A program made the translations under genes and the position numbers. Below, in pieces: positions 10,486 to 48,568 of a stretch of DNA of 64,000 nucleotides. The notes below the pieces were generated by a model. The model saw nothing but the letters and a program-made list of their open reading frames with translations, did not search any database and was not told the origin of the DNA. Position 1 is the stretch's first letter; each line of letters begins with the position of its first letter. Source of the stretch: an uncultured Clostridia bacterium (GTDB lineage: Bacteria > Bacillota > Clostridia > CAKSNL01 > HGM11501); assembly GCA_934476235.1 (NCBI GenBank), contig CAKSNL010000001.1, forward strand, positions 44,497-108,496, written 5' to 3'.

Positions 10486-11802
10486 ATGTATAACATCAAG
10501 GACTACGGAGCCAAAGAAGGCTCTCTTTCGACAAAAGCGATCCAGAGCGCAATCGACGCGGCGTATGAATCCGGCGGGGGAACCGTGTTCATTCCGGAAG
10601 GCACATTCATATCCGGCACTTTAATAATTAAAGACAATATTCACATTGTCTTTGAGAACGGAGCCGTGATTTTGGGCAGCGTCAACATGGAGGATTTTCT
10701 CCCCCGCGAGGAAAATCCCGACAACGATACATACCAGGATAAGAGCCACAGCTATTTTCACCACTCTTTGTTTTATGCCGATTCGTGCAGAAACATTTCG
10801 TTTTCCGGGCTCGGCAAAATTGACATGCAGTCGGTCTGGGAGCCGGACGGTTCATGGCAGAGAGCGGTTAAAATCTTCGCGCTTAAAAACTGCACCGACG
10901 TTGTGATAAAGGACCTTATTTTGCGCAACGCGACAGACCTTGCGGTTTATTTCGCCGGGTGCGAAAACGTTACGGTCACTCGCCTTAACATTTTAACGCA
11001 TATTGACGGGATAAGCCCCGATTCTTGCAAAAACGTTGTAATATCGGACTGCATTATAAATTCGGGGGATGACGGCATCGTCCCGAAAAGCTCCTTCACT
11101 CTGGGGCGCTTTGCGGCGATGGAAAACCTCACCATATCAAACTGCATAATCTCATCAAGATGCAACGCGATAAAATTCGGAACCGAATCCAACACCGCAT
11201 TTTTAAACGTCGCCATTACAGGCTGCACGATATATAACACAAGATTTTCGGGCATAACTCTTCAGGCGGTGGACGGAGCTTTGGTAAACGGCTTTTCCGT
11301 TTCCGGAGTCACCATGAAAAACGTCGGCAATCCCATAATGCTTATGGTGCTTGACAGAGGGCGGGCTCCCGAGGGCACTATAATCGGCGAGATCAAAAAC
11401 GTGTCGCTTGCGGGAATCACGGCAACCGGTCCTTACGAGCCGTGGGAGGCGCCGACCTGGAACTATAAATCACACATGGAGGACGATAAGGTTCAGCCTC
11501 CCGTTCCCGCTCCGGTCATCATCGCCGGTCAGCCGGACAGTATCATTAAAAACGTTTCTATGTCGGATATGATATTTTCAATGCCCGGCGGCGGAACGAA
11601 GGAGGACCGCGAAATAAAGCTTCCCACCGTGCGCGACGGATATCCCGAATCTATCCGGTTCGGGCGGAAAACCCCGTGCTACGGCATGATTGCGGTAAAC
11701 GTTGATAATTTAAGGCTTTATAACGTTGACTTTTCCACGGAAAAGGAGGACGCGCGCGATGAGGCGGTATTTATAAACGTCACACGCTACAAAAGAATAT
11801 AA
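10486..11802 (+). CDS. Glycoside hydrolase family 28 (polygalacturonase-like), no signal peptide
   Basis: N-terminus YNIKDYGAKEGS...GGGTVFIPEGTF and the beta-helix segment NCIISSRCNAIKFGTES are GH28 hallmarks. Confidence 0.75.
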   Translation: MYNIKDYGAKEGSLSTKAIQSAIDAAYESGGGTVFIPEGTFISGTLIIKDNIHIVFENGAVILGSVNMEDFLPREENPDNDTYQDKSHSYFHHSLFYADSCRNISFSGLGKIDMQSVWEPDGSWQRAVKIFALKNCTDVVIKDLILRNATDLAVYFAGCENVTVTRLNILTHIDGISPDSCKNVVISDCIINSGDDGIVPKSSFTLGRFAAMENLTISNCIISSRCNAIKFGTESNTAFLNVAITGCTIYNTRFSGITLQAVDGALVNGFSVSGVTMKNVGNPIMLMVLDRGRAPEGTIIGEIKNVSLAGITATGPYEPWEAPTWNYKSHMEDDKVQPPVPAPVIIAGQPDSIIKNVSMSDMIFSMPGGGTKEDREIKLPTVRDGYPESIRFGRKTPCYGMIAVNVDNLRLYNVDFSTEKEDARDEAVFINVTRYKRI

Positions 11803-11837
11803 AATAACGGCGGAGAATTTCTCCGCCGTTATTTTAC
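11803..11837. terminator. Bidirectional terminator hairpin (AATAACGGCGGAGAA/TTCTCCGCCGTTATT) between the convergent GH28 gene and the etf fusion gene
   Basis: Perfect 13-bp stem flanked by A and T runs. Confidence 0.75.
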
Positions 11838-13199
11838 TATGTCCCCGGCTTCGGCTATGATTCCGTAGTCCGAGTATTTAAAAATCGGAGCGTCTTTATC
11901 GGGGTTCACCGCAATAATTGTTCCCGCTCCCTCCACTGCGCACATGTGCTGAACCGCGCCGGAAATGCCGACGGCTATATATATCTTCGGCGCCGCCGTT
12001 TTCCCCGTGAGCCCTATCTGCTCTTCATAAGGCGCCATATCCATATCGACGGCGGCTCTTGACGCGCCCATCTGTGCGCCGAGCTTTTCTTTAAGTGCGC
12101 AAAGCTCTTTGTAATTTTCTGCCGCGCCGCGTCCCAAAGAAAGTATTATGTCCGCACTGTCGGACTCTGTTCTTACGGTCGCCATCTGCGGGTTCGTTCT
12201 GCACTCGATTTTTGCCGTAACGTCTCCGCCGAGCGCCGGGCGGTACATATAAAGCCTTTTTCCGTCCGTCTCAAGCGCCGTACAGTCCGCGCAAAGCCCC
12301 GTCTCAAGCATTGCCGCGGCAATCGGCGCGTCGCGCCGCGAGGTTAAGTCTGCGTTCCAGAGTATTACCTCCGGGCGCTCTTTTTTTGCCCGTTCGGCTA
12401 TTTTACGAGGGTCCTTTTCCTCGATAAATATGACGTTTTCGGCAATTGCAAGAGCCTGCTTGGAAACCTCTTTTCCTACCGCCCAGACCTCTTTTAATTT
12501 CTTCTTTGCCGGGGGGATATTTACCTCGATCCTCTTTTTCTTTGAAAGCTTTTCAACGAGCGGCAAAAATTCATCGGGCTTTATAAATTTGCACTTTCTT
12601 TCGCTCTCCTGCCTGTAAAAGGTTTTTATAACCTTTGTCGGCGAGCCCGAAAATCCGCATTTTTTCCCGTCCGCCGAAATATCATGGGCTCCGAGAACCG
12701 TTACGCTCCCCGCCTTCGAGCGAAAGCTCGGGAACCTTAAGTCAAACATTCTTTCGACAGTCACCAAAACCGGAGTTTTCGCCTTCATCTCTCCGAGCCT
12801 TGTTCTGCACGAAACCGTGCCGTTTTTTTCCGAGATATCCAAAGCGTACGCGATAACCGGAATCCCCAGCATTTCGGAAATGCACGGACCGACCTGTGCG
12901 GTGTCCGAATCGGTCGACTGCTTTCCGCAAAGAATAATATCATAATTTTCTCTTGCCAGCGCTTTTGATAAGACATATCCCGTCGCGAGCGTGTCGCTTC
13001 CGGCAAACGCCTTGTCGGTCAAAAGCACCGCACGGACGCCGAGCCTTGTAAGCTCTGTCAATTTGCTCTCAGCCGCGGCGGGCGCCATGGAATAGACCGT
13101 CACATCGTCGGACAGGCGGAGCGCCGCCTCTATCGCCGAGGAATCAAACGGGCTTATCTCGCCTTTAACGACCTTAACACATACCGCAATCTTCATCAT
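11829..13199 (-). CDS. Fused electron-transfer flavoprotein: EtfB-like N-terminal domain plus EtfA FAD-binding C-terminal domain in one polypeptide
   Basis: The N-terminal ~215 aa carry EtfB motifs (FAGSDTLATGYVL, ILCGKQSTDSDTAQVGP, GSPTKVIK). The C-terminal ~200 aa carry EtfA domain II motifs (ASRAAVD, PKIYIAVGISGAVQHMCAVEGAGTIIAVNPDKDAPIF). The ATG start overlaps the kinase stop as ATGA. Confidence 0.7.
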   Translation of the reverse strand: MMKIAVCVKVVKGEISPFDSSAIEAALRLSDDVTVYSMAPAAAESKLTELTRLGVRAVLLTDKAFAGSDTLATGYVLSKALARENYDIILCGKQSTDSDTAQVGPCISEMLGIPVIAYALDISEKNGTVSCRTRLGEMKAKTPVLVTVERMFDLRFPSFRSKAGSVTVLGAHDISADGKKCGFSGSPTKVIKTFYRQESERKCKFIKPDEFLPLVEKLSKKKRIEVNIPPAKKKLKEVWAVGKEVSKQALAIAENVIFIEEKDPRKIAERAKKERPEVILWNADLTSRRDAPIAAAMLETGLCADCTALETDGKRLYMYRPALGGDVTAKIECRTNPQMATVRTESDSADIILSLGRGAAENYKELCALKEKLGAQMGASRAAVDMDMAPYEEQIGLTGKTAAPKIYIAVGISGAVQHMCAVEGAGTIIAVNPDKDAPIFKYSDYGIIAEAGDIVK

Positions 13200-14668
13200 T
13201 CGCACCCGTGGTATATCGGCGCCAATGCGTCATGCACCTTTTTGTAGCGCTTATACTGCTCTTTATAGATTTCGTTATTCTTCATATCGGGCTCCGTCAC
13301 GAAAACCTCCTCGTTGCAGAATGACACCGCCTCGCACGGACTTAAGAAAAATCCCGCCGCAACGCCAGCCAGCATTGCGCTTCCGAATGACGAGTCGGAA
13401 TACTTTTTCCCGACGAGCGTTATGCCCAGCATATCCGCCGTGATTGAACGCCAGAGCGGGCTTTTTCCTCCGCCGCCGATTATTACCGCCGTTTCGTCAT
13501 GCGGAATACCGATTTTGCCGAGCGCGTCCATACAGTCCGCTATCGACATGGAAACGCCCTCCAAAAGCGCCCTCGTAAAATGCGCCTTCGTGTGGTTCGC
13601 GCGCACACCGATGAAGCTCGCCGATAAAAGCGGGTCGGCATACGGCGTCAGCTCTCCGTTAAGGTAGGGGTGAAACATCAGCCCCTCCGCTCCGGGCGCT
13701 ATTTTTTCCGCGCCTGAGTCAAGCGTCTTATAATCCTCCCCGAACGTGTCACGGTACCACCTGTAGGACGCGGCGCACGATTTTGTCGCCGTTCCGGGAT
13801 ACCACAGCCCGTCAATTATATGCGAATAGTTGATAAGGTTCTTATCGGGATACGACCTGTCCGTCACGACGCAGATGCGCCCGGCGGTCGCAAGCTTTAT
13901 TGTCATGTTTCCTTTTTTAACCGCGCCGGAGGCAAAAACCTCCATAACCGTGTCCGTCGTTCCGCATATTACCGCGGTGCCGGGATAAAGCCCCGTGTCC
14001 TTCGCCGCATTTTCCGTGACTGTGCCGACAACATCTTGAGGATTTACCGCCTCGGGCAATATCGCCTTGTCGATTCCCGCGGCAGCGCAAAGAACGTCCG
14101 ACCATTTCTTTTCGTTTAAGTCAAAGAGCATGCTGCCTTCCGCCTCTATATAATCCGTCACATAGTCACCGGTGAGGCAGTGGCGCACATAGTCCTTCGC
14201 AAAAAATATTTTTCTGATTTTACTAAAAATTCCGGGCTCGTTATTCTTTATCCAGAGAAGCTGCGGAAGCGTCCAGATGGTGTCAACATTATGAAGAGAG
14301 CGCTTTTTTATCTCCTCGCCGAGCGTTTCTTTAAGGCAGTCAACCTCTTTTTTGCTCCGCGTATCCGTCCAGTAAATCGAAGGCATGAGCACATTAAAAT
14401 CCTCATCCATTAACACTGCGGTATGCGTCGCCGCGTCAAGCGCAACCGCCTTTATATCGGCGGGGGAAACGCCGGAGGTCTTTATCACCGAGCGGATATT
14501 TTCCTTCGCAGCATTATACCAATCGTCCGGATTCTGCTCCACGTAGCCCGCCTTCGGGTAATATGTGGGATATTCGTACGACGCTTCCGCAACGATTTTT
14601 CCCTCTTCGGAAAGAAGCGTTGCCTTGGACGCGCCGCCGCCGAAATCTATACCGAGAGCATATCTCAT
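13196..14668 (-). CDS. FGGY-family carbohydrate kinase
   Basis: N-terminus YALGIDFGGGASKATL and a 490-aa length match the FGGY family. Confidence 0.8.
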   Translation of the reverse strand: MRYALGIDFGGGASKATLLSEEGKIVAEASYEYPTYYPKAGYVEQNPDDWYNAAKENIRSVIKTSGVSPADIKAVALDAATHTAVLMDEDFNVLMPSIYWTDTRSKKEVDCLKETLGEEIKKRSLHNVDTIWTLPQLLWIKNNEPGIFSKIRKIFFAKDYVRHCLTGDYVTDYIEAEGSMLFDLNEKKWSDVLCAAAGIDKAILPEAVNPQDVVGTVTENAAKDTGLYPGTAVICGTTDTVMEVFASGAVKKGNMTIKLATAGRICVVTDRSYPDKNLINYSHIIDGLWYPGTATKSCAASYRWYRDTFGEDYKTLDSGAEKIAPGAEGLMFHPYLNGELTPYADPLLSASFIGVRANHTKAHFTRALLEGVSMSIADCMDALGKIGIPHDETAVIIGGGGKSPLWRSITADMLGITLVGKKYSDSSFGSAMLAGVAAGFFLSPCEAVSFCNEEVFVTEPDMKNNEIYKEQYKRYKKVHDALAPIYHGCE

Positions 14669-14690
14669 AAAAAAATCCTCTTTTCTTTCT

Positions 14691-14720
14691 AAAAAGCCCG
14701 GAATTGCTCCGGGCTTTTCA
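14691..14720 (-). terminator. Intra-operon hairpin (GCCCGGA...TCCGGGC) with a T-run on the minus strand, between the epimerase and kinase genes
   Basis: Inverted repeat flanked by A5 and T4-5. Possible partial terminator or attenuator inside the operon. Confidence 0.5.
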
Positions 14721-15590
14721 TTATTCTCCGAAGGTTATTTCGTGATAAAATTCCTTCGTCTTTCCTTTTTCCAATGCGGTTATCTCATCTTTTTCTTCTA
14801 TTTTGCCTGTCGAATCAACACTGTCGGGAAGTCCGCTCCACGGCTCGATACAGATATATCCGGCATCCGGGAACGACCAGATGACAAGATTCTTTTGCCC
14901 CGGGAACCGAACGCTCACTATCACTTCGCCGCTTTTATGCTTTAATGTGACAGACTCTGACAAAATGTCTTTAAATATCAGCGAATCTCTTTCTTTAAGC
15001 ATCCCGCCTGTTACCGAAAGCTCCTTCGTTCTCTCCGCCAAAAGCTCGCGCTTTCCGCTTAAGAGGGGACCTTCAAGCATATAATTAAAAAGCGTTTCTT
15101 CCTTTTCAAACTCAAAAACATAATCCTCTGTTTTTCCGGGGCAGGCATAACCTTCATGCGAGCCCGCCGAAAAATACATCGTCTTATCATCCTTGTTTTC
15201 CACACGGTATGTAACGCCGAGCGTATTGCCCGAAAGACTGTAAATGACCGAAAAGCCGTATAAGAACGGATAGCTTTCCTTGTACTTATCAAGACCCTTT
15301 GCACAAAATACAGCTTCGCTTTCGCTTATTTTTTCGGGCTCATAGTCCAAAAAACGCGCAAAGCCGTGCTTTGTCATTTCATAGCTTTTGCCGGACAGGG
15401 TGTATCTCCCGTCCTTTAACGCGCCGCAGACAGGGAAAACGATAGGTGCGTGAAAGCCCCAGACCGACTTATCGCCGCTCCACATATATTCTCTTCCCGT
15501 TTTGTCCGTCACGCTCGCAATTTCTGCGCCGAAATTTTTGATCTTAACTTTAAGGACTCCATTTTCGATTACGGTTATTTCGTCAGCCAT
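14721..15590 (-). CDS. Aldose 1-epimerase (mutarotase) family protein
   Basis: 289-aa product with the segment WSFPDAGYICIEPWSG, typical of the mutarotase family. A GAGGAGGA RBS lies upstream. Confidence 0.65.
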   Translation of the reverse strand: MADEITVIENGVLKVKIKNFGAEIASVTDKTGREYMWSGDKSVWGFHAPIVFPVCGALKDGRYTLSGKSYEMTKHGFARFLDYEPEKISESEAVFCAKGLDKYKESYPFLYGFSVIYSLSGNTLGVTYRVENKDDKTMYFSAGSHEGYACPGKTEDYVFEFEKEETLFNYMLEGPLLSGKRELLAERTKELSVTGGMLKERDSLIFKDILSESVTLKHKSGEVIVSVRFPGQKNLVIWSFPDAGYICIEPWSGLPDSVDSTGKIEEKDEITALEKGKTKEFYHEITFGE

Positions 15591-16363
15591 TTATGATCCT
15601 CCTCGGTAGTCATGAAAAATCCTCTGTTTTCGCCAGCCATTATCCAAAGGTAATAGTTGTTGTATCCGGGCGCCGCACAGCAGGGGTGATATCCTCTCGG
15701 AATCTCAACGAAATCGCCGCCGCGTACGGTATAGGTCTCGTCAATATCGCCCTCTTTTGTGTATACCTTCTGAATTCCGAAGCCCTGGGGCTTGTCGTAC
15801 TCATAATAGTAAACTTCCTCCAAAACGCCCTCTGTCGGCATATTGTCATCGTCATGCTTGTGAGGAGGATAGCTTGCCCACTGTCCGCCCTCGACATATG
15901 CCTCGCCGATGTAAATGAGGTTTGCCTTTACTCTCTCATCCAAAATAAAGTGCGCCTGTCTTCTCCAGCCGGGCTTGCCCATATCCTTGATTATCACGTC
16001 CTCGGGCTTAACCAAAACGGGCTCAAAGTCCTTCAGAGCGGGAGACTTGCAGACAGCGATCGTCACATCGCCCACACCGGTAACGGTGAACTTTCTGTTT
16101 CTCGGAACATAAAGGCAGGTTGCCGCTCCGTCAAAAGCGTTCTTTCTTTTGCCGATCTCGGTAAATTCAAACCCGTCGCCCTTGACCGTGCACTTTCCGC
16201 CGATAATTAAGAGTCCGTACTCTTTATCCTTTTCGGAATATGTTTTCGTTCCCCCGTCGGGAAGCTTTAACATATCGACCTCAATCATATTAAGCGATGA
16301 ATTTTCCTTAGTGATGACCGCGGCTTTGCCGTACTCATTTTTCCAGGTCTTCTTTAAATTCAT
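15575..16363 (-). CDS. iolB: 5-deoxy-glucuronate isomerase (KduI/IolB family, IolB-like)
   Basis: The C-terminal segment ASYPPHKHDDDNMPTEGVLEEVYYYE...GFGIQKVYT...IDETYTV closely resembles B. subtilis IolB. Confidence 0.8.
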   Translation of the reverse strand: MNLKKTWKNEYGKAAVITKENSSLNMIEVDMLKLPDGGTKTYSEKDKEYGLLIIGGKCTVKGDGFEFTEIGKRKNAFDGAATCLYVPRNRKFTVTGVGDVTIAVCKSPALKDFEPVLVKPEDVIIKDMGKPGWRRQAHFILDERVKANLIYIGEAYVEGGQWASYPPHKHDDDNMPTEGVLEEVYYYEYDKPQGFGIQKVYTKEGDIDETYTVRGGDFVEIPRGYHPCCAAPGYNNYYLWIMAGENRGFFMTTEEDHKWLTK

Positions 16364-17267
16364 TATAACCCAACTCCTTTAAAAATTCAATAACTTTTTT
16401 ATACTCGGGAACCGCGCTTCTCGCGCCGAGCTTTGTGCACTTAAGCGCAGATACGGCGCTTGAAAAAATGCAGCATTTATACATGTCAAACCCCTTCGCA
16501 AGTGCAAAGGCGAAAGCGCCGTGGAAAACATCGCCCGCGCCGTTGGAGTCAACGACCTCGGCGGGAAGCGCCGGGTATGACCTTACATTGTCGCCGTCAT
16601 ACATAATGCCGCCCTTTTTGCCCTGCGTTATGACAACTACTTCGGGGCGGTACGCCTCGTAAAGCGCCCTTGCCGCATCTTCCGCCGTTTCCTTTTTCGT
16701 AAATCCGAGTGCAAATTCCTCCGACGGAATCAAAATATCCGCATACTTTATTAAATTCTCCACGCCGTCATATAATCCTCCGGCGTCGTACAAAACCTTT
16801 GTACCGGACTCTTTTGCGAAACGGGCGCCCTCTGTCGCCGCGTCCATCTCATTGCCGTCTATCATTAATATGTCCGCCGCTTTTATTTCGTCCTTCTGCT
16901 CAGGAGAAAGCTTAAGCGGAGGAATATCGCCCCTGTAAAACACGCAGGTTCTCGTTTTCTCCTTTTCGCTTAAGAAAATGCACGAAGAAAACGACGAAAA
17001 TCCCGATGCGACATTGACCTTTGACGTGTCAACGCCGTACTTTTCCATATCGGCTTTTAAGAATATTCCCGGAGCATCCGTCGTCAGCGCTCCCAGATAC
17101 GACACATTTGCTCCGAGCTTTGCCGCCGCGACAAGACCCGTCGCGGTCGGTCCCCCTCCGGATGAAACGGCGCTCTTCGCGCGCTTTTTCGTGTCCTCAT
17201 CCGGGTACGAGTCAACGGTATAGAGCGTGTCATATACATTGGCGCCTATGCCTGTTATCCTCATCAT
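16335..17267 (-). CDS. PfkB-family sugar kinase (IolC-like 5-dehydro-2-deoxygluconokinase candidate)
   Basis: Ribokinase-fold motifs, including the NGAGD anion hole. Sits between iolB and the aldolase gene. Confidence 0.65.
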   Translation of the reverse strand: MMRITGIGANVYDTLYTVDSYPDEDTKKRAKSAVSSGGGPTATGLVAAAKLGANVSYLGALTTDAPGIFLKADMEKYGVDTSKVNVASGFSSFSSCIFLSEKEKTRTCVFYRGDIPPLKLSPEQKDEIKAADILMIDGNEMDAATEGARFAKESGTKVLYDAGGLYDGVENLIKYADILIPSEEFALGFTKKETAEDAARALYEAYRPEVVVITQGKKGGIMYDGDNVRSYPALPAEVVDSNGAGDVFHGAFAFALAKGFDMYKCCIFSSAVSALKCTKLGARSAVPEYKKVIEFLKELGYNEFKEDLEK

Positions 17268-18091
17268 GCCTTGTTTTCAGCTCCTAACAGTCTGATTTTC
17301 GACTTTGCAAATTCGCCCACATTTTTGATTGCATCCTTCATAAAGAGGTCGATGGCAATCTTTTCTCTCGAGGTCTCAAAAACCTTGTCAAGGAACGAAT
17401 AGCAAAGATCCGTGCCGAAGTTAATCTTTCTGATTCCGGCATTGACCGCCGCCTTTATCTGATCGTCCGGCACACCGCTTCCGCCGTGCAGTACAAGCGG
17501 AATTCCCGTAAGCTCTTTTATCTTCGAAATTCTCTCAATGTCAAGCTTGGGAGCCTTTTTATATCTTCCGTGAGCCGTGCCGACCAAGATTGCAAGCGCG
17601 CTGACGCCTGTCGCGTCAACATATGCCTTTGCCTCTCCGGGGTCGGTAAACTCCGCCATTGACTCGTCATTTACAGAGCCGATATGTCCCAGCTCGCCCT
17701 CGACCGGAACGCCGACGTGAGCGCAAAGCTCAGCCACGCGCGCGGTATAGCTCTTGTTTTCCTCAAACGGAAGGCTGGACGCGTCAATCATAATGCCGGT
17801 CGCGCCGTAGGTGAGCGCTCTTACGACCTCGTGCTCCGACGCGCCGTGGTCCAGGTGGAAGCAAACCGGAACCTTTGCCTTTTTTGCCGCCGCCAAAACT
17901 ATGGGAGCAAGGAAATATGCCTCTTCGTTTGTGAAAAGTCTTGAATAAGACTGTAATATTACCGGAGCGTTAAGCTCCTCCGCCGCGTTGATAACGCCCA
18001 TTACGGTCTCCATATTGTACACGTTGAATGCCGGGATCGCGAAATTTCCTTTTTCCGCGATGGCAAGTATCTCTTTAAGATTTACAAGCAT
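17264..18091 (-). CDS. Class II aldolase of the FbaA/GatY/IolJ family
   Basis: N-terminal segment IPAFNVYNMETVMGVINAAEE...PVILQ and an HLDHG metal site. Confidence 0.75.
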   Translation of the reverse strand: MLVNLKEILAIAEKGNFAIPAFNVYNMETVMGVINAAEELNAPVILQSYSRLFTNEEAYFLAPIVLAAAKKAKVPVCFHLDHGASEHEVVRALTYGATGIMIDASSLPFEENKSYTARVAELCAHVGVPVEGELGHIGSVNDESMAEFTDPGEAKAYVDATGVSALAILVGTAHGRYKKAPKLDIERISKIKELTGIPLVLHGGSGVPDDQIKAAVNAGIRKINFGTDLCYSFLDKVFETSREKIAIDLFMKDAIKNVGEFAKSKIRLLGAENKA

Positions 18092-19179
18092 TTTACAATT
18101 GCCTCCTCAAGTGTCAGAATTTCAATTCCCTTTTCTTTAAGCTCTTTTAATGCCAGATATTCCGCCGGAGACGCGGTAACAAGCTTCTTTGTGCCAACGT
18201 GAAGTGCGTCCGCCATTCTTCTTTTGGCAACAAGCTTCATAACGTCCGGCATATAAGCCTTCATTACGGGGTGTCCCGCAATCATCGTGTCGCGTCCGGT
18301 CATAAGCATCTCGCCGGTTTTTCCGAGCGCGGAAAGTATGCTTCTCGCCGGCTTTGTCTCCTCAAGGTCGCGCGCAAGATGTGCGGGATCCTGGAACACA
18401 AATTCGTCCTTCGTCTTTTTAACGCCGAGCTTTTTGCCGGAGATAAGCTCCGACAAAAACGCAGTATATGTAACGGGCTTTGCCGAAAGCGCGATGTTCC
18501 ACTCCTTGTATTCGCGCATGAACACCTTAGCGTCCGCCGGGTCGTATGCCACGATTTTTTTAGCGCCGGTGTTCTTTATTGCAGCCGCAGCCTTCTCCAT
18601 TGCCTCTCTGGTCTCAGCCGCCGCGCCCAAAAGGAAGTCATAAGCATATCCGGAGTCGGGCTCGTTCTTCATTACCGTGAAATCGACTCCCGCTTTCTTT
18701 AAGAGCTCAATTGCCTCTATTGCGTTAGCCGGAGCATTGCAGCGTGCGTCGCTTCCCAAAAAGAGGAGTACCTCCGCCTTCTCGGGAAGAGTCTCAATCT
18801 CGGCTTTAAGCTTCTTATCCAAAGTCTTTTTACCGTAAACGTTACCGGTCTTTTCAAGATTTGTGATGAGCTTTTCTATGTACTCGGGCATAACGCCGTC
18901 CATCGCCGCGGCAAGGCGTGCCTCCTTGGTGAATATAACGGGATCCCAGCCTGTCGCGCACTCCTTTGTGCATCCGCCGCAAAGCGCGCACTCGTATAAA
19001 TTGTCAACAACGTCGGAAAGCTTTGCCGAGTCTCTTACGACCATCGAAAGAGAAAGTGCTCTCGCTCTTGCCGTGTTTCTCTCCTGTCCCGTCGCGTTGC
19101 CGATGGGGCAAATATGGCGGCACATCCAGCAAAATCTGCATGCGTCAACCGTTTTTCTGCTTTTTTCAGATAACTGCAT
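18082..19179 (-). CDS. 4Fe-4S dicluster domain protein (GlcF/LutB-like electron-transfer subunit)
   Basis: Two CxxCxxCxxxCP motifs (CRFCWMCRHICP and CALCGGCTKEC) followed by a ~260-aa cysteine-poor domain. Confidence 0.6.
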   Translation of the reverse strand: MQLSEKSRKTVDACRFCWMCRHICPIGNATGQERNTARARALSLSMVVRDSAKLSDVVDNLYECALCGGCTKECATGWDPVIFTKEARLAAAMDGVMPEYIEKLITNLEKTGNVYGKKTLDKKLKAEIETLPEKAEVLLFLGSDARCNAPANAIEAIELLKKAGVDFTVMKNEPDSGYAYDFLLGAAAETREAMEKAAAAIKNTGAKKIVAYDPADAKVFMREYKEWNIALSAKPVTYTAFLSELISGKKLGVKKTKDEFVFQDPAHLARDLEETKPARSILSALGKTGEMLMTGRDTMIAGHPVMKAYMPDVMKLVAKRRMADALHVGTKKLVTASPAEYLALKELKEKGIEILTLEEAIVKCL

Positions 19180-19194
19180 ATCGCTTCCTCCTTC

Positions 19195-20616
19195 TTATAA
19201 ACCGAGCTTGAACGGATTCATGATTCCGTTGGGATCAAGCTGTTTCTTAATTCCTTCAAATACCTGCATTGCGGGACCGTACTGCTCCTTCATGAGTCTG
19301 CCGAGCTTGATGCCGACGCCGTGGTGGTCGTTAACGACACCGCCGTTTGCGATAGCCGTGCGCACACCGCAGCTCCAGATAGCGTTATGAAGTCTTAACG
19401 CCTCGTGAGGATCTGCCGGAACATCGTCAACTATGAATCTGTCGTAAACCATTGCGCCCCACTCGTACCAGTGCGAGAAGTGAGCGATAAAGCGCGCCAT
19501 CGGGAAATTCTCCTCGATTGCCTTTTTCATTGCCCAGTATATTTTTTCAATCTTGTCGTAAGGAGCGATCGTATCCATGGTTCCGAACATCTGCGGAAGG
19601 TCCATCATATGACCGGGATAGAAGAATGTGATCTTCTCGTCCCACCACTTTTTACCGTACTCGCTGCCTAAGTCCTCTGCTCCGTACTTTTTAACGAAGG
19701 TATCCAAAAGAATCTTCTCTTCAACCGCGACAAGCTCGGAAACGCCCTCGATAGCCACGTTCATAAACGCGCCCTTCTTCTCAACGCCGACAATCTTTTT
19801 GATAAGCGTGGAGGTCTCCGCCTCGTCGTAAAGACGCATAACGGAGGGCTTGAACTTCTGGAGCAGCTCGCGCGCGCCGTTGAACGCGTCGCTCATATTC
19901 TTGAATAAGAATCCGCGGAAGCGTCTTTCCTCGGGCATATCGTAAATTCTCATCTGAGCCTTTGTGATAATACCGAGCGTGCCCTCGGAGCCGATGAATA
20001 TCTGGTTAAGGTCGGGACCTGCCGCATGCTTGGGAGCCGGCGATGTCTCGATAATGTCGCCGTTCGGGAGCACGACCTCCATTTGAAGCGTCATATCGTC
20101 AATCTTTCCGTATTTCGTGGAAACGACGCCGATACCTCTGTGAGCCAAAAAGCCGCCGACCGTTGAACATGTAAGTGAGCTGGGATAGTGCATCGTAGCA
20201 TATCCTCTTTCGTTTGCTGCCCATTCGATGTGCTTATAGATGGCGCCCGTTCCGCACTCTATGTACATTCCCTGTTCGTTGATGTCATAAATCTTATCCA
20301 TTCTCTTGGTATCCAATACGATACCGCCGCAAACGGGAATGGCGCCGCCCTGCGTTCCGCCGCCGCCGCCCCATGCGGTCACGGGAATCTTATAGTAGTT
20401 TGCAATCTTTAATACGTTGGAAACCTCTTTTGCGTCCTTGGGCGATACAATGATCGCTCCCTCGGGCATTCTCTCCCCGCGGTCAGCCCACATTCTTGAA
20501 AGCCAGAAGTAGTCCACGCTGTGAGATATCTTGTCTATCGTGCGTGTCGAGCAGTTTTCTCTGCCGACCGCGTCCTCAAGCTCGGACGCGATCATATCAA
20601 ATAAAAAATCGTTCAT
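19195..20616 (-). CDS. FAD-linked oxidase (GlcD / D-lactate dehydrogenase family)
   Basis: FAD_binding_4 type N-domain (WGGGGGTQGG) and an FAD-oxidase C-terminal domain ending HHGVGIKLG...MNPFKLG. Confidence 0.8.
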   Translation of the reverse strand: MNDFLFDMIASELEDAVGRENCSTRTIDKISHSVDYFWLSRMWADRGERMPEGAIIVSPKDAKEVSNVLKIANYYKIPVTAWGGGGGTQGGAIPVCGGIVLDTKRMDKIYDINEQGMYIECGTGAIYKHIEWAANERGYATMHYPSSLTCSTVGGFLAHRGIGVVSTKYGKIDDMTLQMEVVLPNGDIIETSPAPKHAAGPDLNQIFIGSEGTLGIITKAQMRIYDMPEERRFRGFLFKNMSDAFNGARELLQKFKPSVMRLYDEAETSTLIKKIVGVEKKGAFMNVAIEGVSELVAVEEKILLDTFVKKYGAEDLGSEYGKKWWDEKITFFYPGHMMDLPQMFGTMDTIAPYDKIEKIYWAMKKAIEENFPMARFIAHFSHWYEWGAMVYDRFIVDDVPADPHEALRLHNAIWSCGVRTAIANGGVVNDHHGVGIKLGRLMKEQYGPAMQVFEGIKKQLDPNGIMNPFKLGL

Positions 20617-20639
20617 TTTATTTTTCCTTTCTCTAAAAA

Positions 20640-22043
20640 TTATTCTTCGATCGGGTCAAATTCAAGACCCGGAATGAACTTGCAGAATTCCTTAAGCACA
20701 TCGGCATACGTTCCGTATATCTCGCTCATGTGGTGTATGTAAGGACCCTCGATGAGCTTTCTTTCAAGCTTTGAAAGATCGGAAAACTCAGCCCACATAT
20801 GCGTTCCGAAGGTGTGGGGTCCGTCCGTCGTCTTAAAGTTTCCGCCAAGAAGCGTGTAGCGCCCCGCCTCTCCCTGGAAGCGCGCGATGGTGTATTCTCC
20901 GTCCTTCGCTCTGAAGCTCGGCTTCGTGTTCCAAAGCTCCGCCTTCACGCCCTCTTTCTTAACCGAATACGGGAACGGACCGCAGTGCCACAAAAGCTCG
21001 GCGTTCTTATTTTCGGGATGGCGCACGGTGAATTCTCCGAAGGTCGGCGCGTCCTCTCCGCGTGCGGCGCACATTAATATCGCCTGGCTGATCGCGCCGT
21101 GAATGTCCGACTCACAGGCAACGATATAGCCCATATCATACAAAATGCTCATCGCAAGGCACGGATTTGCGCGGAACGCCAAGGGCATGCTCGTCCAGCA
21201 CTCGGAAGCCAGAACCGAGGCTTTCGTGTCGTTAAATATCTCAATATACGCATAAACGAACGTCAGCATTCTCTTAAGCGTTTCATCGTCAAGATTCTTA
21301 ACGTCGTAAAGCTCCTTTAAGCGCACAAGATCCTCCTTAAGCTCCTTTGCCTTTTCTTCGTAGAGCCTTTCGAGCTTTTTCTCCATAACCGTCATGTTAA
21401 CGGTGTTTAAGTTGATTCCGAACTTTTCGGTCAGCTCCAGCTCGTTTGACATAACGCTCTTGAACGGGTCAAGCCTCGTTCCGACCATGGTTACGCGCAA
21501 GGTCTTAAAGTTTTTGACCATTGTGGCAACCGACAAAAACTTTTTAACGCCGTCTGAGAAAACGCCGTCCGTCATGCGGCAGTTCTCAATGTAGGAAAAC
21601 GGCACCCCGAGGCGCTTTAACTGCTTGCTTATTGCAAAAAGTCCACACTGGCAGTCGGTGTATCTTCCGCCGTCCGGCTCAAACACATCGTCCAGCGGTC
21701 CCCACAAAAGAACCGGAACGCCCATAAGCTTTGCGACCTGACCCGCCGCCTCTTCGCTTCCGAAGTTGCAGTTGATTAAAAATACCGCGTCAACCCCCTC
21801 CGCTTTGAAACGCTCCGCAACGCGCGGCGCGTCATACGGGTCATACAAAAGCCCTTCTTCATTTAAAAATGCAAGATCCGTAAACTCCGTCTTGTCGTCG
21901 GAAAAGCTTTCCTTTATGTAAGGAAGTACTTTTTCCTTGTTTTCCCACGCCTTTTTCGGTTCAAATATTCCCTTTCTGGTCGCGGCGTCAGCCAAATGGC
22001 GGCGCATGGGAATAAGCCCGATTTTTAATTTATAGTCAAGCAT
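20640..22043 (-). CDS. L-fucose/L-arabinose isomerase family protein
   Basis: 467-aa product resembling the short fucose-isomerase-like family of Firmicutes. It is the first gene of the operon and has the RBS AAAGGAAAGAGGGAG. Confidence 0.5.
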   Translation of the reverse strand: MLDYKLKIGLIPMRRHLADAATRKGIFEPKKAWENKEKVLPYIKESFSDDKTEFTDLAFLNEEGLLYDPYDAPRVAERFKAEGVDAVFLINCNFGSEEAAGQVAKLMGVPVLLWGPLDDVFEPDGGRYTDCQCGLFAISKQLKRLGVPFSYIENCRMTDGVFSDGVKKFLSVATMVKNFKTLRVTMVGTRLDPFKSVMSNELELTEKFGINLNTVNMTVMEKKLERLYEEKAKELKEDLVRLKELYDVKNLDDETLKRMLTFVYAYIEIFNDTKASVLASECWTSMPLAFRANPCLAMSILYDMGYIVACESDIHGAISQAILMCAARGEDAPTFGEFTVRHPENKNAELLWHCGPFPYSVKKEGVKAELWNTKPSFRAKDGEYTIARFQGEAGRYTLLGGNFKTTDGPHTFGTHMWAEFSDLSKLERKLIEGPYIHHMSEIYGTYADVLKEFCKFIPGLEFDPIEE

Positions 22044-22082
22044 GTCTTCTCCCTCTTTCCTTTTTGATTTTACTTCGAAACT

Positions 22083-22111
22083 ATATTATCACACATTCAG
22101 GCAAAAATCAA
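22083..22111 (-). promoter_or_regulatory. Sigma-A type promoter for the 9-gene operon (TTGATT, 17-nt spacer, TAATAT)
   Basis: Read on the minus strand: ttgatttttgcctgaatgtgtgataatat. Confidence 0.5.
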
Positions 22112-22167
22112 TAGTTTTTTGAAATATTTTTTCATTTATTTTTTGTTTTTCGCGCTTTCCATACATT

Positions 22168-22190
22168 GTATTGTGAAAATTATTTTCAGA
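22168..22190. promoter_or_regulatory. Operator-like repeat copy 1 (TGTATTGTGAAAATTATTTTCAG)
   Basis: Twice-occurring ~22-nt motif in the divergent rpiR/operon region. The GAAAATTATTTTC core is near-palindromic. Confidence 0.45.
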
Positions 22191-22204
22191 ACATCCGTTT
22201 CCGG

Positions 22205-22233
22205 TTGACTTTTTTTGCCCCTTGCGGTATAAT
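22205..22233 (+). promoter_or_regulatory. Sigma-A type promoter for rpiR (TTGACT, 17-nt spacer, TATAAT)
   Basis: Consensus boxes seen 40 nt upstream of the ATG at 22274. Confidence 0.6.
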
Positions 22234-22237
22234 CAGA

Positions 22238-22260
22238 CTGTATTGAAAATAATTTTCATT
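22238..22260. promoter_or_regulatory. Operator-like repeat copy 2 (TGTATTGAAAATAATTTTCATT), immediately downstream of the rpiR -10 box
   Basis: Second copy of the motif. Its position suggests autoregulation. Confidence 0.45.
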
Positions 22261-22273
22261 TTCGGAGGCTCAA

Positions 22274-23110
22274 ATGGATAAAACTCTTTTGAAAATACAG
22301 GTTTTATATAACGATATGGGAAAGTCGGAAAAGAAGATTGCGGACTATATCCTATCAGACCCCGGCGCCCTCTTGCCCCTTTCCATAACGGATCTGGCGG
22401 ACAGGAGCAACAGCAGCGAGGCAACCATCGTGCGCTTTGCAAAAAGGCTCGGGCTCTCGGGCTATCAGGAGCTTAAGATAACGCTTGCCCAGGAAAGCGG
22501 AAAGGCGGCAAACACGCACGATATTGATATTGACGATTCGCTTTCCGAAATATATGACAAGGTCACGAGCGACATTTACCGTTCTCTTGAGATGACGAAA
22601 AAATCGCTTAGTCCCGAGGAGCTTACCGCCGCTGCCGAAGCGGTGCTCTCCGCCGGCAAGGTCGTCATCTTCGGTCTGGGCAATTCCGCCTCCGTCGCGG
22701 CGGACGCGGGGCACAAATTCTTCCGCGCCGGGATCGACGCGGCGGCGTATTCGGACAACCACATGCAGGCTATCGCCGCGTCGCACCTTAAAGAGGGGGA
22801 CGTTGCCATCGGCATATCTCATTCCGGTTCCTCGCGCGATATTGCGGACGCGTTAAAGATTGCGCGCGAGCATAACGCCAAAACTATCGCCATCACAAAC
22901 AAGGGCAGATCACCCGTCGCCGGAATGGCGGATTTAAAGCTTTTCACCGCGTCGCAGGAAACGGAGTATACTATTTTGGGCTTAAACTCCAGAATTGCCG
23001 CCCTCGCGATAATCGACACGATATATTCCTACATCGTGTGCCACAAAAAGGGTGACGCGCTCTCTGCCATAGCGAATGTGGAGGACGCGTTAAAGAGTAA
23101 GAAATATTAA
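22274..23110 (+). CDS. MurR/RpiR family transcriptional regulator (HTH plus SIS domain)
   Basis: N-terminal HTH (ATIVRFAKRLGLSGYQELK) and a C-terminal SIS sugar-phosphate-binding domain. Confidence 0.85.
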   Translation: MDKTLLKIQVLYNDMGKSEKKIADYILSDPGALLPLSITDLADRSNSSEATIVRFAKRLGLSGYQELKITLAQESGKAANTHDIDIDDSLSEIYDKVTSDIYRSLEMTKKSLSPEELTAAAEAVLSAGKVVIFGLGNSASVAADAGHKFFRAGIDAAAYSDNHMQAIAASHLKEGDVAIGISHSGSSRDIADALKIAREHNAKTIAITNKGRSPVAGMADLKLFTASQETEYTILGLNSRIAALAIIDTIYSYIVCHKKGDALSAIANVEDALKSKKY

Positions 23111-26883: not shown

Positions 26884-27840
26884 ATGTTAAAGAAAATATC
26901 CGAAATCGGCATTGTCCCGGTCATCAAGATTAATGACGCGGAAAAGGCAGTTCCGCTTGCAAAAGCGCTGATTGACGGCGGTCTCCCCATCGCGGAAATC
27001 ACGTTCCGTACGGACGCGGCGGAGGAGTCGATAAGACGTGTGAGCGCGGCATTCCCCGAAATGCTCGTCGGCGCCGGCACGGTACTGACCGTTGAGCAGG
27101 CAAAGCGCGCGAAGGACGCGGGCGCAAAATTCATCGTCAGCCCCGGCTTCAATCCCAAGGTCGTTTCCTGGTGCCTTGAAAATGACATTACTCCCACACC
27201 CGGCTGCACATCGCCCTCCGAGATCGAGGCGGCGCTTGAGCTCGGGCTTAAGGCGGTAAAGTTCTTCCCGGCTGAGCAGAGCGGCGGAATCGCAAAGATA
27301 AAGGCGCTCTCCGCTCCCTATTCCGGTCTTAAATTCATCCCGACCGGCGGAATAAGCCTTGACAATCTGACTTCATACATAACCAATAAAAAGATATTGG
27401 CATGCGGCGGAAGCTTCATGGTAAAGGAGGACTACATCAATAATTGTGAGTGGGACAAGATTACCGAGCTTACCAGAAAGTCGGTAAACGTTATGCTCGG
27501 GCTTGAGATAGGTCACATCGGCATTAACGCCCGGAGCAATTCCGAGGCTGAAAGCATTGCCGACCGTTTCTCGCTCCTTTTCGGAAACGCAGAAAAGAGA
27601 ACCACGTCCAAGAGCATATTCGCGGGCGACTCGATCGAGGTCATGCTCCCCGAAGGAAGAGGCAAAAACGGTCACATCGCTATTTTAACAAACTCGGTTG
27701 ACAGAGCGTGCTACCACCTCGGAAAGCAGGGCTTCTCGTTCGATACCGACAGTGCCAAATATAATGACGACGGCTCGCTCAAATTCATATACTTCAATGA
27801 TGAAATCGGCGGCTTCGGCGTTCACCTTGTTCAGAGATAA
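26884..27840 (+). CDS. eda: KDPG/KHG aldolase (Eda) fused to a C-terminal ~100-aa VOC/glyoxalase-like domain
   Basis: The first ~210 aa match KDPG aldolase (VIKINDAEKAVPLAKAL, GAGTVLT, FIVSPG). The tail HIGINARS...SIEVMLPEGRG...HIAILT resembles a VOC fold. Confidence 0.8.
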   Translation: MLKKISEIGIVPVIKINDAEKAVPLAKALIDGGLPIAEITFRTDAAEESIRRVSAAFPEMLVGAGTVLTVEQAKRAKDAGAKFIVSPGFNPKVVSWCLENDITPTPGCTSPSEIEAALELGLKAVKFFPAEQSGGIAKIKALSAPYSGLKFIPTGGISLDNLTSYITNKKILACGGSFMVKEDYINNCEWDKITELTRKSVNVMLGLEIGHIGINARSNSEAESIADRFSLLFGNAEKRTTSKSIFAGDSIEVMLPEGRGKNGHIAILTNSVDRACYHLGKQGFSFDTDSAKYNDDGSLKFIYFNDEIGGFGVHLVQR

Positions 27841-27863
27841 AATAAAGAGAGGAATCACATAAA

Positions 27864-38590: not shown

Positions 38591-38772
38591 ATAACTCCTC
38601 CTTTTTCAGTGCGTCATCTTTTTAAGAATCCGTTTCAGCATAAAATACGCATTATACTTATTTTATACCATATTAATATATTAGTCAATCATTTCCTTAA
38701 TTTTTTTATTGCAAAATACCCTTTTTGGTATTAGAATATAGATATACACTCAGAAAGAAAGGACTAAATATA

Positions 38773-46374: not shown

Positions 46375-46522
46375 AAAAACCTCCGTTTTGCCTTTCTTCG
46401 GCGCGCCGACAGTAACTATCGTCACTTTTTACAGTATCGTGGTGTTTTTATACAGTATATTATATTTTATTTGCCTTGTCAATGCGTTATAATGGTGAAA
46501 ACAATATACGGAGGTGTGTGAT

Positions 46523-48555: not shown

Positions 48556-48568
48556 TCGGGAGGTAATT

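Follow-up and report, generated by a model that had tools for sequence, protein, structure and literature searches.

A nine-gene operon of uncultured gut Clostridia belongs to a sugar-breakdown gene set conserved across several phyla

The operon and its encoded proteins

We analysed a 64-kb window of contig CAKSNL010000001.1 from an uncultured Clostridia bacterium, and all positions below are numbered along this whole window. The window contains an operon of nine co-directional open reading frames (ORFs) on the minus strand (11829–22043), most of them overlapping, which is bounded by a divergent gene for an RpiR-family regulator and by a strong terminator. A preliminary description of the window had reported these nine ORFs, and their positions and overlaps were confirmed. 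The genes are designated g1 to g9 in the order of transcription. The operon is the gut-Clostridia version of a sugar-breakdown gene set that is conserved across several phyla, and it is not an inositol pathway. The features of the locus are as follows.

22274–23110, plus strand: RpiR-family regulator with HTH_6 and SIS sugar-phosphate-binding domains (Pfam), divergent from the operon
22083–22111, minus strand: promoter-like element with a TGT-GATAAT extended −10 and a weak −35 (read from the sequence)
20640–22043, minus strand: g1, aldose–ketose isomerase with the L-arabinose/L-fucose-isomerase fold, distantly SftI-like (structure model and sequence)
19195–20616, minus strand: g2, FAD protein of the GlcD/alkyl-dihydroxyacetone-phosphate-synthase group (PF01565, FAD_binding_4; PF02913, FAD-oxidase_C)
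18082–19179, minus strand: g3, N-terminal 2x[4Fe-4S] ferredoxin domain and CCG-like C-terminal domain without cysteines (motifs and family models)
17264–18091, minus strand: g4, class II ketose-phosphate aldolase (PF01116, F_bP_aldolase, 294 bits)
16335–17267, minus strand: g5, PfkB-family kinase, predicted ketose 1-kinase (PF00294)
15575–16363, minus strand: g6, IolB-family cupin aldose–ketose isomerase (KduI/IolB)
14721–15590, minus strand: g7, LacX-type aldose 1-epimerase, an accessory mutarotase (PF01263, Aldose_epim)
14692–14718, minus strand: internal hairpin followed by U5, between g7 and g8 (−20 to −22 kcal/mol, z −4.8)
13196–14668, minus strand: g8, FGGY kinase, xylulokinase-like (FGGY)
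11829–13205, minus strand: g9, compact fused EtfB-EtfA of 458 aa (PF01012 in two stretches; PF00766)
11799–11837, minus strand: intrinsic terminator with an 18-bp stem, common to a convergent glycoside hydrolase (GH) family 28 gene (−27 kcal/mol, z −6.1)

Five of the eight gene junctions are overlaps (4 to 29 nt). In the direction of transcription, g1 and g2 lie 23 nt apart and g2 and g3 15 nt apart; the next four junctions overlap by 10, 4, 29 and 16 nt, 52 nt separate g7 from g8, and g8 overlaps g9 by 10 nt. An independent metagenome scaffold carries the same nine genes, with identical proteins. The preliminary description placed the whole operon behind a single promoter at 22083–22111. An extended −10 is present there, and the element is a plausible operon promoter on its sequence; however, its −35 is weak. 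The best candidate, TTGATT, is separated from the −10 by only 15 nt, so that a consensus promoter scan passed over the element. The scan did report a strong promoter-like site on the regulator side (plus strand, 22205–22233), and internal promoter-like sites occurred at chance level (16 found against 12.2 expected). The GC-rich hairpin at 14692–14718, which the preliminary description had missed, occupies the one intergenic gap of notable size in the operon. As this 52-nt gap holds both the hairpin and a UUUUU run, the hairpin may be an attenuator or partial terminator, and g8–g9 may be attenuated or partly separate from the genes upstream. The regulator gave similar sub-threshold NCBIfam scores to AlsR, MurR/RpiR and HexR.

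The family assignments made in the preliminary description were right at the level of the fold according to Pfam and NCBIfam, whereas the finer identities differed for g1, g2, g4 and g5. For g2, the best matches among solved structures were alkyl-dihydroxyacetone-phosphate (alkyl-DHAP) synthases (ADPS/AGPS; 2uuu, 137 bits, and 4bby, 129 bits), followed by D-lactate dehydrogenase (D-LDH; 111 bits) and LctD (7qh2_C; 98.8 bits). R261 and Y391 of g2 align with the catalytic R352 and Y508 of Dictyostelium ADPS, which correspond to the residues altered in the R419H and Y578F entries, and are conserved in 58–59 of 59 homologues. DHH at 430–432 aligns with the ADPS HHH loop, two histidines of which are kept, and the ADPS-aligned residues including this loop are retained in 55–59 of 57–59 homologues. 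The "GEHGIG" motif of D-LDH is replaced in g2 by "NDHHGVG", which resembles the HHH loop, and the His/His/Glu metal triad motif of D-lactate dehydrogenases is missing, its second His being a Tyr. On this alignment, g2 is better described as ADPS-like than as the "GlcD-like oxidase" initially proposed; the IMG annotation of many g2 homologues is "alkyldihydroxyacetonephosphate synthase".

Nevertheless, g2 differs from ADPS in several respects. It is a protein of 473 aa (ADPS, 584–658 aa) without the N-terminal extension, which may be the gate-keeping domain particular to ADPS, so that its alignment begins at about residue 139 of the Dictyostelium chain and about residue 202 of the guinea-pig chain, and the position of ADPS R447 falls in an alignment gap. 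Its context is sugar catabolism and not lipid synthesis. It also has an obligatory Fe-S partner, joined in Clostridia by an electron-transferring flavoprotein (Etf), which implies net redox chemistry.

The partner g3 carries two CxxCxxCxxxC motifs (C14/17/20/24 and C64/67/70/74), which hold the only conserved cysteines among 50 homologues. The protein is weakly similar to TfrB, DsrK, GlpC and LdhH, and its C-terminal domain is kin to the CCG domains of GlpC, TfrB and LdhH. A g3-type gene always follows the flavoprotein gene, including on the contigs sampled outside Clostridia. The nearest relatives of g9 are the Etfs of CarDE, Bcd-Etf, acryloyl-CoA reductase and LctBC, which are of the bifurcating-complex types, g9 itself being a shortened single-chain fusion.

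No Pfam match and no sequence match in the PDB were obtained for g1. It scored 108.8 bits against the sulfoquinovose isomerase (SftI) model NF048012, the cut-off of which is 700. Its AlphaFold model (predicted local distance difference test, pLDDT, 92) gave template-modelling (TM) scores of 0.83 to L-arabinose isomerase (AraA) and 0.75 to L-fucose isomerase at 12–16% identity, and E97, E311, D313, H353, H437 and H438 are invariant in the family. This isomerase family comprises more than 3,500 sequence clusters at 90% identity; in the representative search and the cluster names, the relatives of g1 were unnamed or carried only the generic name "fucose isomerase-like". Homologues of g1 with 63–70% identity are also found in loci lacking the remaining cluster genes: beside NagA and a NagB-like gene (L034–36), after GH3 and GH2 genes (L020) or with DUF4867 alone (L033). 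The mutarotase g7 matched PDB 3dcd, a "galactose mutarotase related enzyme", with 160 bits.

Among solved structures, the aldolase g4 is closest to E. coli YdjI (186 bits), followed by AgaY (176 bits). It gave similar sub-threshold scores to the fructose-bisphosphate aldolase (FBA) and tagatose-bisphosphate aldolase models, and no IolJ-specific model matched. It carries an HLDH motif (H79, D81, H82) as well as H174 and H202, which we take to be the class II metal and catalytic positions. The kinase g5 stayed below the cut-offs of the ribokinase model (136 bits) and of the IolC model TIGR04382 (106.8 bits, cut-off 300); its nearest structure is the sulfofructose kinase YihV (7ag6, 132 bits), followed by ketohexokinases, and a GAGD motif lies at 243–246. 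By contrast, g6 passes the IolB (5-deoxy-glucuronate isomerase) model TIGR04378 (257.5 bits, cut-off 205) and matches the Salmonella IolB-like protein 2qjv with 164 bits, H168, H170 and H226 being conserved. The expected catalytic motifs are present in g4, g5 and g6, and a loss of active-site residues, which would have undone the functional reading first offered, is not at issue. The FGGY kinase g8 narrowly passes the XylB model TIGR01312 (388.8 bits, cut-off 380.25) and falls far below the E. coli-type model (233 against 912); gluconokinase is its second-best model (242 bits), and among PDB entries it matches xylulokinases (about 205 bits) and gluconate kinase (156 bits).

Conservation within and beyond the Clostridia

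A scan of one genome per species yielded 80 related loci, and almost all of them belong to uncultured Clostridia of the gut, rumen or hindgut. Of the 80 loci, 42 were informative in that they have at least 10.5 kb downstream of the isomerase gene. The closest belongs to Clostridia bacterium HGM11501 (contig CAAFWO010000030.1; 96% identity in g1). The flavoprotein, Fe-S partner, aldolase, PfkB kinase and FGGY kinase are all kept in 36 of the 42 informative loci, IolB in 33, Etf in 32, and a mutarotase or a DUF4867 cupin in 26. This conservation is far beyond chance, and the preliminary claim of a conserved catabolic operon that mixes sugar enzymes with a flavoprotein/Fe-S/Etf system is upheld by it, the cluster being kept in dozens of uncultured gut and rumen Clostridia. 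The most conserved gene is g2, with a median identity of 87% across loci against 52–65% for its neighbours; across the clostridial loci g2 is 84–100% identical, and the neighbouring genes there only 47–65%. An RpiR-type regulator gene adjoins the isomerase gene in 45 of the 80 loci.

Gene order differs among these loci. In Christensenellaceae, Anaerovibrio-labelled and other loci, a variant arrangement consists of isomerase-aldolase-PfkB-(mutarotase)-DUF4867 and flavoprotein-FeS-(LarA)-FGGY-EtfB-EtfA-IolB, indicating that the gene set divides into two blocks and that Etf can be two genes; separate EtfB and EtfA genes occur in L041, L047 and L049. In clostridial loci Etf directly follows the FGGY gene wherever it was detected. 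Clustering of all extra ORFs in the related loci returned DUF4867 as the only frequent additional gene and no conserved transporter or glycosidase. The DUF4867 cupin is present in 26 related loci, the mutarotase in only 16, and in many of those 26 the cupin gene stands at the place, between IolB and FGGY, that the mutarotase gene occupies in the window. Neighbours vary from locus to locus and include GH28, GH2, GH3, GH4, GH36, GH38, GH123 and GH130 genes and sulfatases. NagA occurs in 10 loci, within the operon in L064 and L067, and in two of the 80 loci (L041 and L047) the module includes a gene for a LarA that scores above the lactate-racemase equivalog cut-off.

The cross-phylum search used a divergent flavoprotein from L037 as query. 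It gave more than 5,700 FAD-oxidase-family matches (E ≤ 0.001); the 120 matches listed were 59–89% identical to the query, and those labelled Thermoguttaceae, Oligosphaeraceae, Lentisphaeria, Verrucomicrobiae, Kiritimatiellae and Spirochaetota were about 60% identical. Around these genes we found a seven-gene core, adjoined by a DeoR regulator gene, of PfkB, FucI-like isomerase, IolB, FGGY, flavoprotein, partner and class II aldolase. The Lentisphaeria-type locus L094 has this core and nothing else; L082, L083, L087 and L089 have the core plus added genes, and L096 has its genes minus the aldolase. Complete cores free of Etf were found on contigs whose flavoproteins are labelled Lentisphaeria, Oligosphaeraceae and Spirochaetota, whereas the set is incomplete or altered on the Verrucomicrobiae, Thermoguttaceae and Kiritimatiellae contigs. 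Etf is absent from all contigs sampled outside the Clostridia-type loci, and is a clostridial addition to a core that extends across phyla. Of the 12 cassette contexts sampled outside Clostridia, 5 (L083, L084, L085, L087 and L094) have FGGY directly upstream of the flavoprotein gene, and L082, L089, L093 and L096 have it within five genes.

In L084 and L085, PfkB and aldolase are both absent, and a 219-aa protein that passes the FSA/TalC model TIGR00875 is encoded upstream of IolB-FGGY-flavoprotein-partner. Since an FSA/TalC protein replaces PfkB and aldolase while IolB stays, IolB, PfkB and aldolase do not act as one unit. The partner protein retains both [4Fe-4S] motifs in most loci outside Clostridia; in L082 and L083 it has lost its second Cys motif, together with the fourth Cys of the other, so that ligands for a single [4Fe-4S] cluster are left. 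Identity to the window proteins outside Clostridia is 51–55% for g2, 36–45% for g4, g6 and g8, 32–38% for g5 and 25–32% for g3. Accessory genes that recur across phyla encode a divergent NagB/Pgl-like protein, a deacetylase (NagA, Amidohydro_2 or carbohydrate esterase family 4, CE4), GFO/IDH/MocA oxidoreductases, GH4 and GH2.

A canonical lactate operon (GntR, LarA, EtfB, EtfA with a ferredoxin domain, and an LctD-like gene) stands back to back with an RpiR-flavoprotein-partner unit in L091 and L092 (3403–12554). The LctD-like gene beside a g2-type gene shows that the g2 family is not the lactate dehydrogenase. After the RpiR-flavoprotein-partner unit come genes for UPF0261, a creatininase-family protein and a ribose-type ATP-binding cassette (ABC) transporter, a different use of the flavoprotein pair.

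Two further arrangements were observed in this sample. L060 (5294–14691) encodes two UhpC/PgtP-like major facilitator superfamily (MFS) transporters, a second FucI-like paralogue, an FSA/Tal protein, a g1-like isomerase, an M20 peptidase and a GH3 enzyme; it resembles the transaldolase form of sulfoglycolysis (sulfo-TAL), with different accessories. In L087, a 603-aa MurQ/GKRP-like SIS protein (862–2673; sub-threshold to the N-acetylmuramate-6-phosphate etherase models) is encoded just upstream of the Spirochaetota cassette.

A candidate two-part route and its alternatives

We read the operon as a two-part, glycolysis-like catabolic route for a free aldose, with an architecture like that of the Embden–Meyerhof–Parnas-type (sulfo-EMP) and sulfo-TAL forms of sulfoglycolysis and with a C6-acidic or C6-modified substrate, for which a hexuronate is the most coherent candidate. 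We put the probability of this reading at roughly 0.4. The two-module architecture taken by itself appears rather probable; that the sugar actually is a hexuronate is, as judged from the homologies, doubtful.

The first part, drawn from homology and gene swaps, would comprise g7, g1, g5 and g4. The sugar would be anomerised by g7 (by the DUF4867 protein in relatives), isomerised to a 2-ketose by g1 and phosphorylated at C1 by the PfkB kinase g5, and the class II aldolase g4 would cleave the ketose 1-phosphate to DHAP and a short aldehyde; in L084 and L085 the FSA/TalC enzyme would act in place of g5 and g4. The second part would return the non-DHAP fragment to glycolysis through the invariant block of g6, g8 and g2/g3. 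Here the IolB-type g6 would convert the aldehyde to an alpha-hydroxyketone or 2-oxoacid, the FGGY kinase g8 would phosphorylate, and the flavoprotein g2 with g3 would perform a redox step. In Clostridia, g2/g3 would exchange electrons with NAD(H), and possibly ferredoxin, via the dedicated Etf g9.

Several observations favour this reading. PfkB and aldolase are replaced jointly while IolB-FGGY-flavoprotein-partner stays, and the variant clostridial order falls into two blocks; both argue for two modules. The alternative between kinase/aldolase and FSA/TalC implies a 2-ketose with a free C1 hydroxyl that is cut between C3 and C4, and is the dichotomy known from sulfo-EMP and sulfo-TAL (PMC11968277). 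The flavoprotein is assigned a redox step because it always occurs with the Fe-S partner; it falls in the D-2-hydroxyacid-dehydrogenase/ADPS clade and has retained those residues of ADPS that handle a keto-phosphate head group, and the Etf resembles those of bifurcating complexes. The nearest characterised relatives of g1, g5, g4 and g6 (SftI, YihV, YdjI and IolB) act on sugars with a distal anion, which points to a C6-acidic or C6-modified substrate. YdjI presumably cleaves ketose-1-phosphates bearing a distal carboxylate. An acidic sugar is also favoured by the action of IolB on 5-deoxyglucuronate and by gluconokinase being the second-best model for g8.

The likeness to sulfoglycolysis (sulfo-EMP/EMP2, sulfo-TAL and the sulfofructose-transaldolase form, sulfo-SFT) extends to the sequence of a mutarotase or DUF4867 protein, an isomerase, and then a kinase with an aldolase or a transaldolase/FSA-type enzyme, and to the yield of a DHAP (or dihydroxyacetone) unit and a C3 aldehyde with its own processing. 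In addition, g1 is distantly SftI-like, g5 is nearest to YihV, and relatives carry DUF4867 (SftX). However, g1 reaches only 109 bits against the SftI cut-off of 700, the recurrent neighbours of the loci examined include no sulfoquinovosidase/GH31, sulfolactaldehyde reductase or dehydrogenase, or sulfonate exporter, and processing of the C3 fragment through IolB, FGGY and an ADPS-like flavoprotein has no counterpart in sulfoglycolysis. The E. coli ydj cluster likewise combines a PfkB kinase (YdjH) with a class II aldolase (YdjI, the closest structure to g4), but its other genes differ.

With a hexuronate as substrate, glucuronate or galacturonate would be converted to fructuronate or tagaturonate, then to the 1-phosphate, and cleaved to DHAP and tartronate semialdehyde. 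Isomerisation by g6 would turn tartronate semialdehyde into hydroxypyruvate, from which an Etf-driven reduction by g2/g3/g9 and a phosphorylation by g8 would lead to D-glycerate or 3-phosphoglycerate. Such a scheme employs all nine genes and would fit a D-2-hydroxyacid/2-oxoacid enzyme with a keto-phosphate-type site. By our stoichiometric calculation, exactly one two-electron reduction, in the half that does not become DHAP, is required when a hexuronate is fermented to two pyruvate, and this is the step assigned to the flavoprotein. Candidate genes for uronate release or glycan foraging are found nearby, namely GH28, Eda and KdgK within the window itself and, in relatives, GH4, GH2 and a gene for a GH67-like protein.

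Several points weigh against this route. The substrate is deduced only from distant homology, of about 109–186 bits, and the FucI-like isomerase of the cassettes outside Clostridia is only 20–24% identical to g1. GlcD-type enzymes are usually oxidative. As no Etf occurs on the contigs sampled outside Clostridia, a reductive role there would require another, low-potential electron donor. An NADH-dependent tartronate-semialdehyde reductase would achieve the conversion in one step, so that IolB, flavoprotein and Etf together look over-engineered. The NagB-like, deacetylase and GFO accessories point to an amino-sugar link, which a uronate explains only indirectly, and clustering of the extra ORFs in the related loci revealed no conserved transporter or uronate-specific gene within the cluster. 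Finally, g8 passes the xylulokinase equivalog, the plain reading of which pairs g1 and g8 on xylose, and isomerases of the g1 type include the proven xylose isomerase XylA-II (PMC2873477).

A different assignment of the second part is a long shot: the ADPS-like flavoprotein might perform covalent flavin-N5 chemistry of the ADPS type in catabolism and remove a substituent at C6. From a C6-substituted hexose, IolB and FGGY would turn the C4–C6 fragment X-CH2-CHOH-CHO into the DHAP analogue X-CH2-CO-CH2-OP, in which X could be a sulfonate, a sulfate ester, or an acyl or alkyl ether. Acting with the Fe-S partner, the flavoprotein would then remove or convert X, and DHAP would be left. If true, both halves of the sugar would be assimilated without a sulfatase, esterase or lyase, and this would be the first catabolic role of this enzyme class and a new way of removing C6 substituents.

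The pairing of g1 and g8 leads to the rival that survives best, although it is unlikely: a xylose operon with extra genes, in which g7, g1 and g8 produce D-xylulose 5-phosphate from D-xylose, PfkB and aldolase form a sedoheptulose-1,7-bisphosphate (SBP) bypass, and IolB and the flavoprotein carry out a side reaction that may be unrelated. The best PDB matches of g8 are xylulokinases, and in Clostridium acetobutylicum a FucI-family isomerase (XylA-II, CAC2610), DUF4867 (CAC2611) and xylB adjoin in one cluster (PMC2873477), an arrangement echoed by the DUF4867 gene beside the FGGY gene in many related loci. In many clostridia an SBP bypass replaces transaldolase. The bypass is documented (PMC7029132). 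A GH10-like neighbour was noted in L026, judged by sequence motifs alone. In this explanation, however, the flavoprotein, Fe-S partner, Etf and IolB, which are the most conserved genes, are left without a role, and five conserved genes are present beyond the C. acetobutylicum module. Moreover, the FGGY gene is tied in all arrangements to the flavoprotein and Etf and not to the isomerase, the g1 homologues with 63–70% identity occur without a nearby FGGY gene, and the XylB score of g8 exceeds the cut-off by only 8 bits, with the L082 homologue just below it.

Breakdown of a 6-deoxyhexose (fucose, rhamnose or quinovose) to DHAP and lactaldehyde, with oxidation to lactate and then to pyruvate by the flavoprotein/Fe-S/Etf system in the manner of the Acetobacterium Ldh-Etf, is decidedly unlikely. 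The deoxy-sugar or 2-hydroxyacid suggestion of the preliminary description keeps some likelihood and is not favoured. The set of FucI-like isomerase, FGGY kinase, mutarotase and aldolase resembles fuc/rha operons, and pectin- or rhamnogalacturonan-type genes neighbour the operon in the window. Like the LctBCD system of Acetobacterium woodii and gut lactate utilisers, the operon combines an FAD dehydrogenase of the GlcD superfamily with an Etf similar to LctBC and CarDE and with additional [4Fe-4S] clusters, and LarA lies inside the module in L041 and L047. Unlike LctD, however, g2 is nearer to ADPS, is remote from LctD itself (99 bits) and has no D-LDH metal-site motif; Fe-S clusters are carried by a separate partner, and the Etf is shortened and fused. 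The lct operon of L091 and L092 coexists with a g2-type unit and has its own LctD-like gene, so the two are different enzymes. We had considered LarA as strong evidence for lactate, and this was downgraded in view of the same operon: LarA is found in only two of 80 loci and may merely have accompanied recruited Etf genes. In addition, no aldehyde dehydrogenase is encoded, PfkB and IolB have no role, and the aldolase is of the FBA type and not of the FucA/RhaD type. A related model, hydroxylation of acetol phosphate to DHAP in 6-deoxyhexose salvage, fits the ADPS-like site and was set aside because its couple, estimated at about 0 mV, is not drivable to NAD+ in a fermenter, even with ferredoxin confurcation.

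Equally poor odds attach to a route for galactose or N-acetylgalactosamine (GalNAc) through tagatose phosphates, in which g7, g1 and g8 would yield tagatose 6-phosphate, NagA and a NagB/AgaI-like deaminase, present in many relatives, would bring GalNAc 6-phosphate to the same product, and PfkB and an AgaY-like aldolase would yield DHAP and glyceraldehyde 3-phosphate. The fold of g1 is that of AraA, which accepts galactose as well and yields tagatose; among solved structures AgaY ranks second for g4; NagA occurs in the 10 loci given above, twice in the operon, and NagB/AgaI-like genes occur across phyla. Neighbours include GH123, GH2 and GH36 genes, a GH4 alpha-galactosidase-like gene and a lacto-N-biose phosphorylase family domain, which we place in GH112; the amino-sugar neighbours would be accounted for. 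Against this, the invariant genes, IolB and the flavoprotein/Fe-S/Etf block, have no role, and the operon in the window is without NagA or NagB. The FSA/TalC replacement in L084 and L085 also fits poorly, for FSA/TalC enzymes act on fructose-configured ketoses and are not known to act on tagatose-configured ones.

The preliminary description had organised the operon around the lower half of myo-inositol catabolism, with IolB, an IolC-like kinase and an IolJ-like aldolase acting on 5-deoxyglucuronate or a close analogue from an unusual precursor. The three genes do cluster by overlaps in the window, the score of g6 exceeds the IolB equivalog cut-off, the superfamilies of g5 and g4 are those of IolC and IolJ, and the type of chemistry (acidic aldose to ketose, ketose 1-phosphate, then DHAP and an acidic aldehyde) is shared. 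As an organising idea it was nonetheless abandoned, and we consider it very improbable. Only IolB reaches a curated score, g5 being far under the IolC cut-off (107 against 300). The upper-half genes iolG/E/D and iolA, which had already been reported missing, were found neither in the 64-kb window nor in about 95 related loci, and no enzyme is present for malonate semialdehyde. IolB is tied to FGGY and the flavoprotein and stays with them when FSA/TalC replaces PfkB and aldolase.

Three other candidates were rejected. Cleavage of xylulose-1,5-bisphosphate to glycolaldehyde phosphate leaves IolB without a possible substrate; N-acetylmuramate catabolism, hinted at by the RpiR/MurR-like regulator, NagA, LarA and the MurQ-like protein of L087, needs none of the isomerase, kinase and aldolase genes; and a linear order from FGGY through the flavoprotein to the aldolase conflicts with the replacement of the aldolase together with PfkB, and not with the flavoprotein, in L084 and L085.

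Genomic surroundings and significance

The window is chromosomal, because it holds recA and the division and cell wall (dcw) cluster. The gene convergent with the operon (10486–11802) encodes a GH28/rhamnogalacturonase-like protein, which recurs as a neighbour only in the nearest relative, L002; on the other side of the operon lies a gene for a 948-aa protein with a pectate-lyase-like adhesive domain (23626–26472). A few kilobases from the operon, at 26884–28892, are genes for a 2-keto-3-deoxy-6-phosphogluconate/2-keto-4-hydroxyglutarate (KDPG/KHG) aldolase, longer than usual at 318 aa, and a PfkB protein resembling 2-keto-3-deoxygluconate (KDG) kinase. This pair also adjoins the cluster in L003 and may share a regulon with the operon in this lineage. 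A second small sugar cluster (45640–49534) consists of an AraC-type regulator gene divergent from genes for a Zn-dependent alcohol dehydrogenase, a GFO/IDH/MocA oxidoreductase (IolG superfamily) and an NAD-epimerase-like protein. The region at 33917–41484 carries cell-envelope glycopolymer genes, namely those for a polysaccharide pyruvyl transferase, a DUF5693 protein, a MurJ-like flippase and a 919-aa protein with a NAGPA phosphodiester-glycosidase domain.

Full-text literature searches yielded no description of the gene set, only precedents for XylA-II, DUF4867 and the SBP bypass. The gene set consists of known enzyme families and follows known pathway logic in a combination for which no description was found, and the initial proposal of an undescribed sugar pathway with an Etf-linked flavoprotein holds. 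The cassette is common in uncultured Clostridia of the human gut, rumen and hindgut and on contigs labelled as Spirochaetota and as members of the Planctomycetes–Verrucomicrobia–Chlamydiae (PVC) group; PVC-group bacteria and Spirochaetota are known as glycan degraders. A conserved route that feeds a sugar into glycolysis is a gap in community metabolic models. Piecemeal annotation is misleading here, since the labels "xylulokinase", "5-deoxyglucuronate isomerase", "fucose isomerase" and "alkyl-DHAP synthase" direct the genes to four unrelated pathways. The flavoprotein, with its ADPS residues, Fe-S partner and private clostridial Etf, is a well-defined target for enzyme discovery. If the pathway were solved, seven to nine gene families would gain a function together, and it would become clear which dietary or host glycan component is used by these abundant uncultured organisms.

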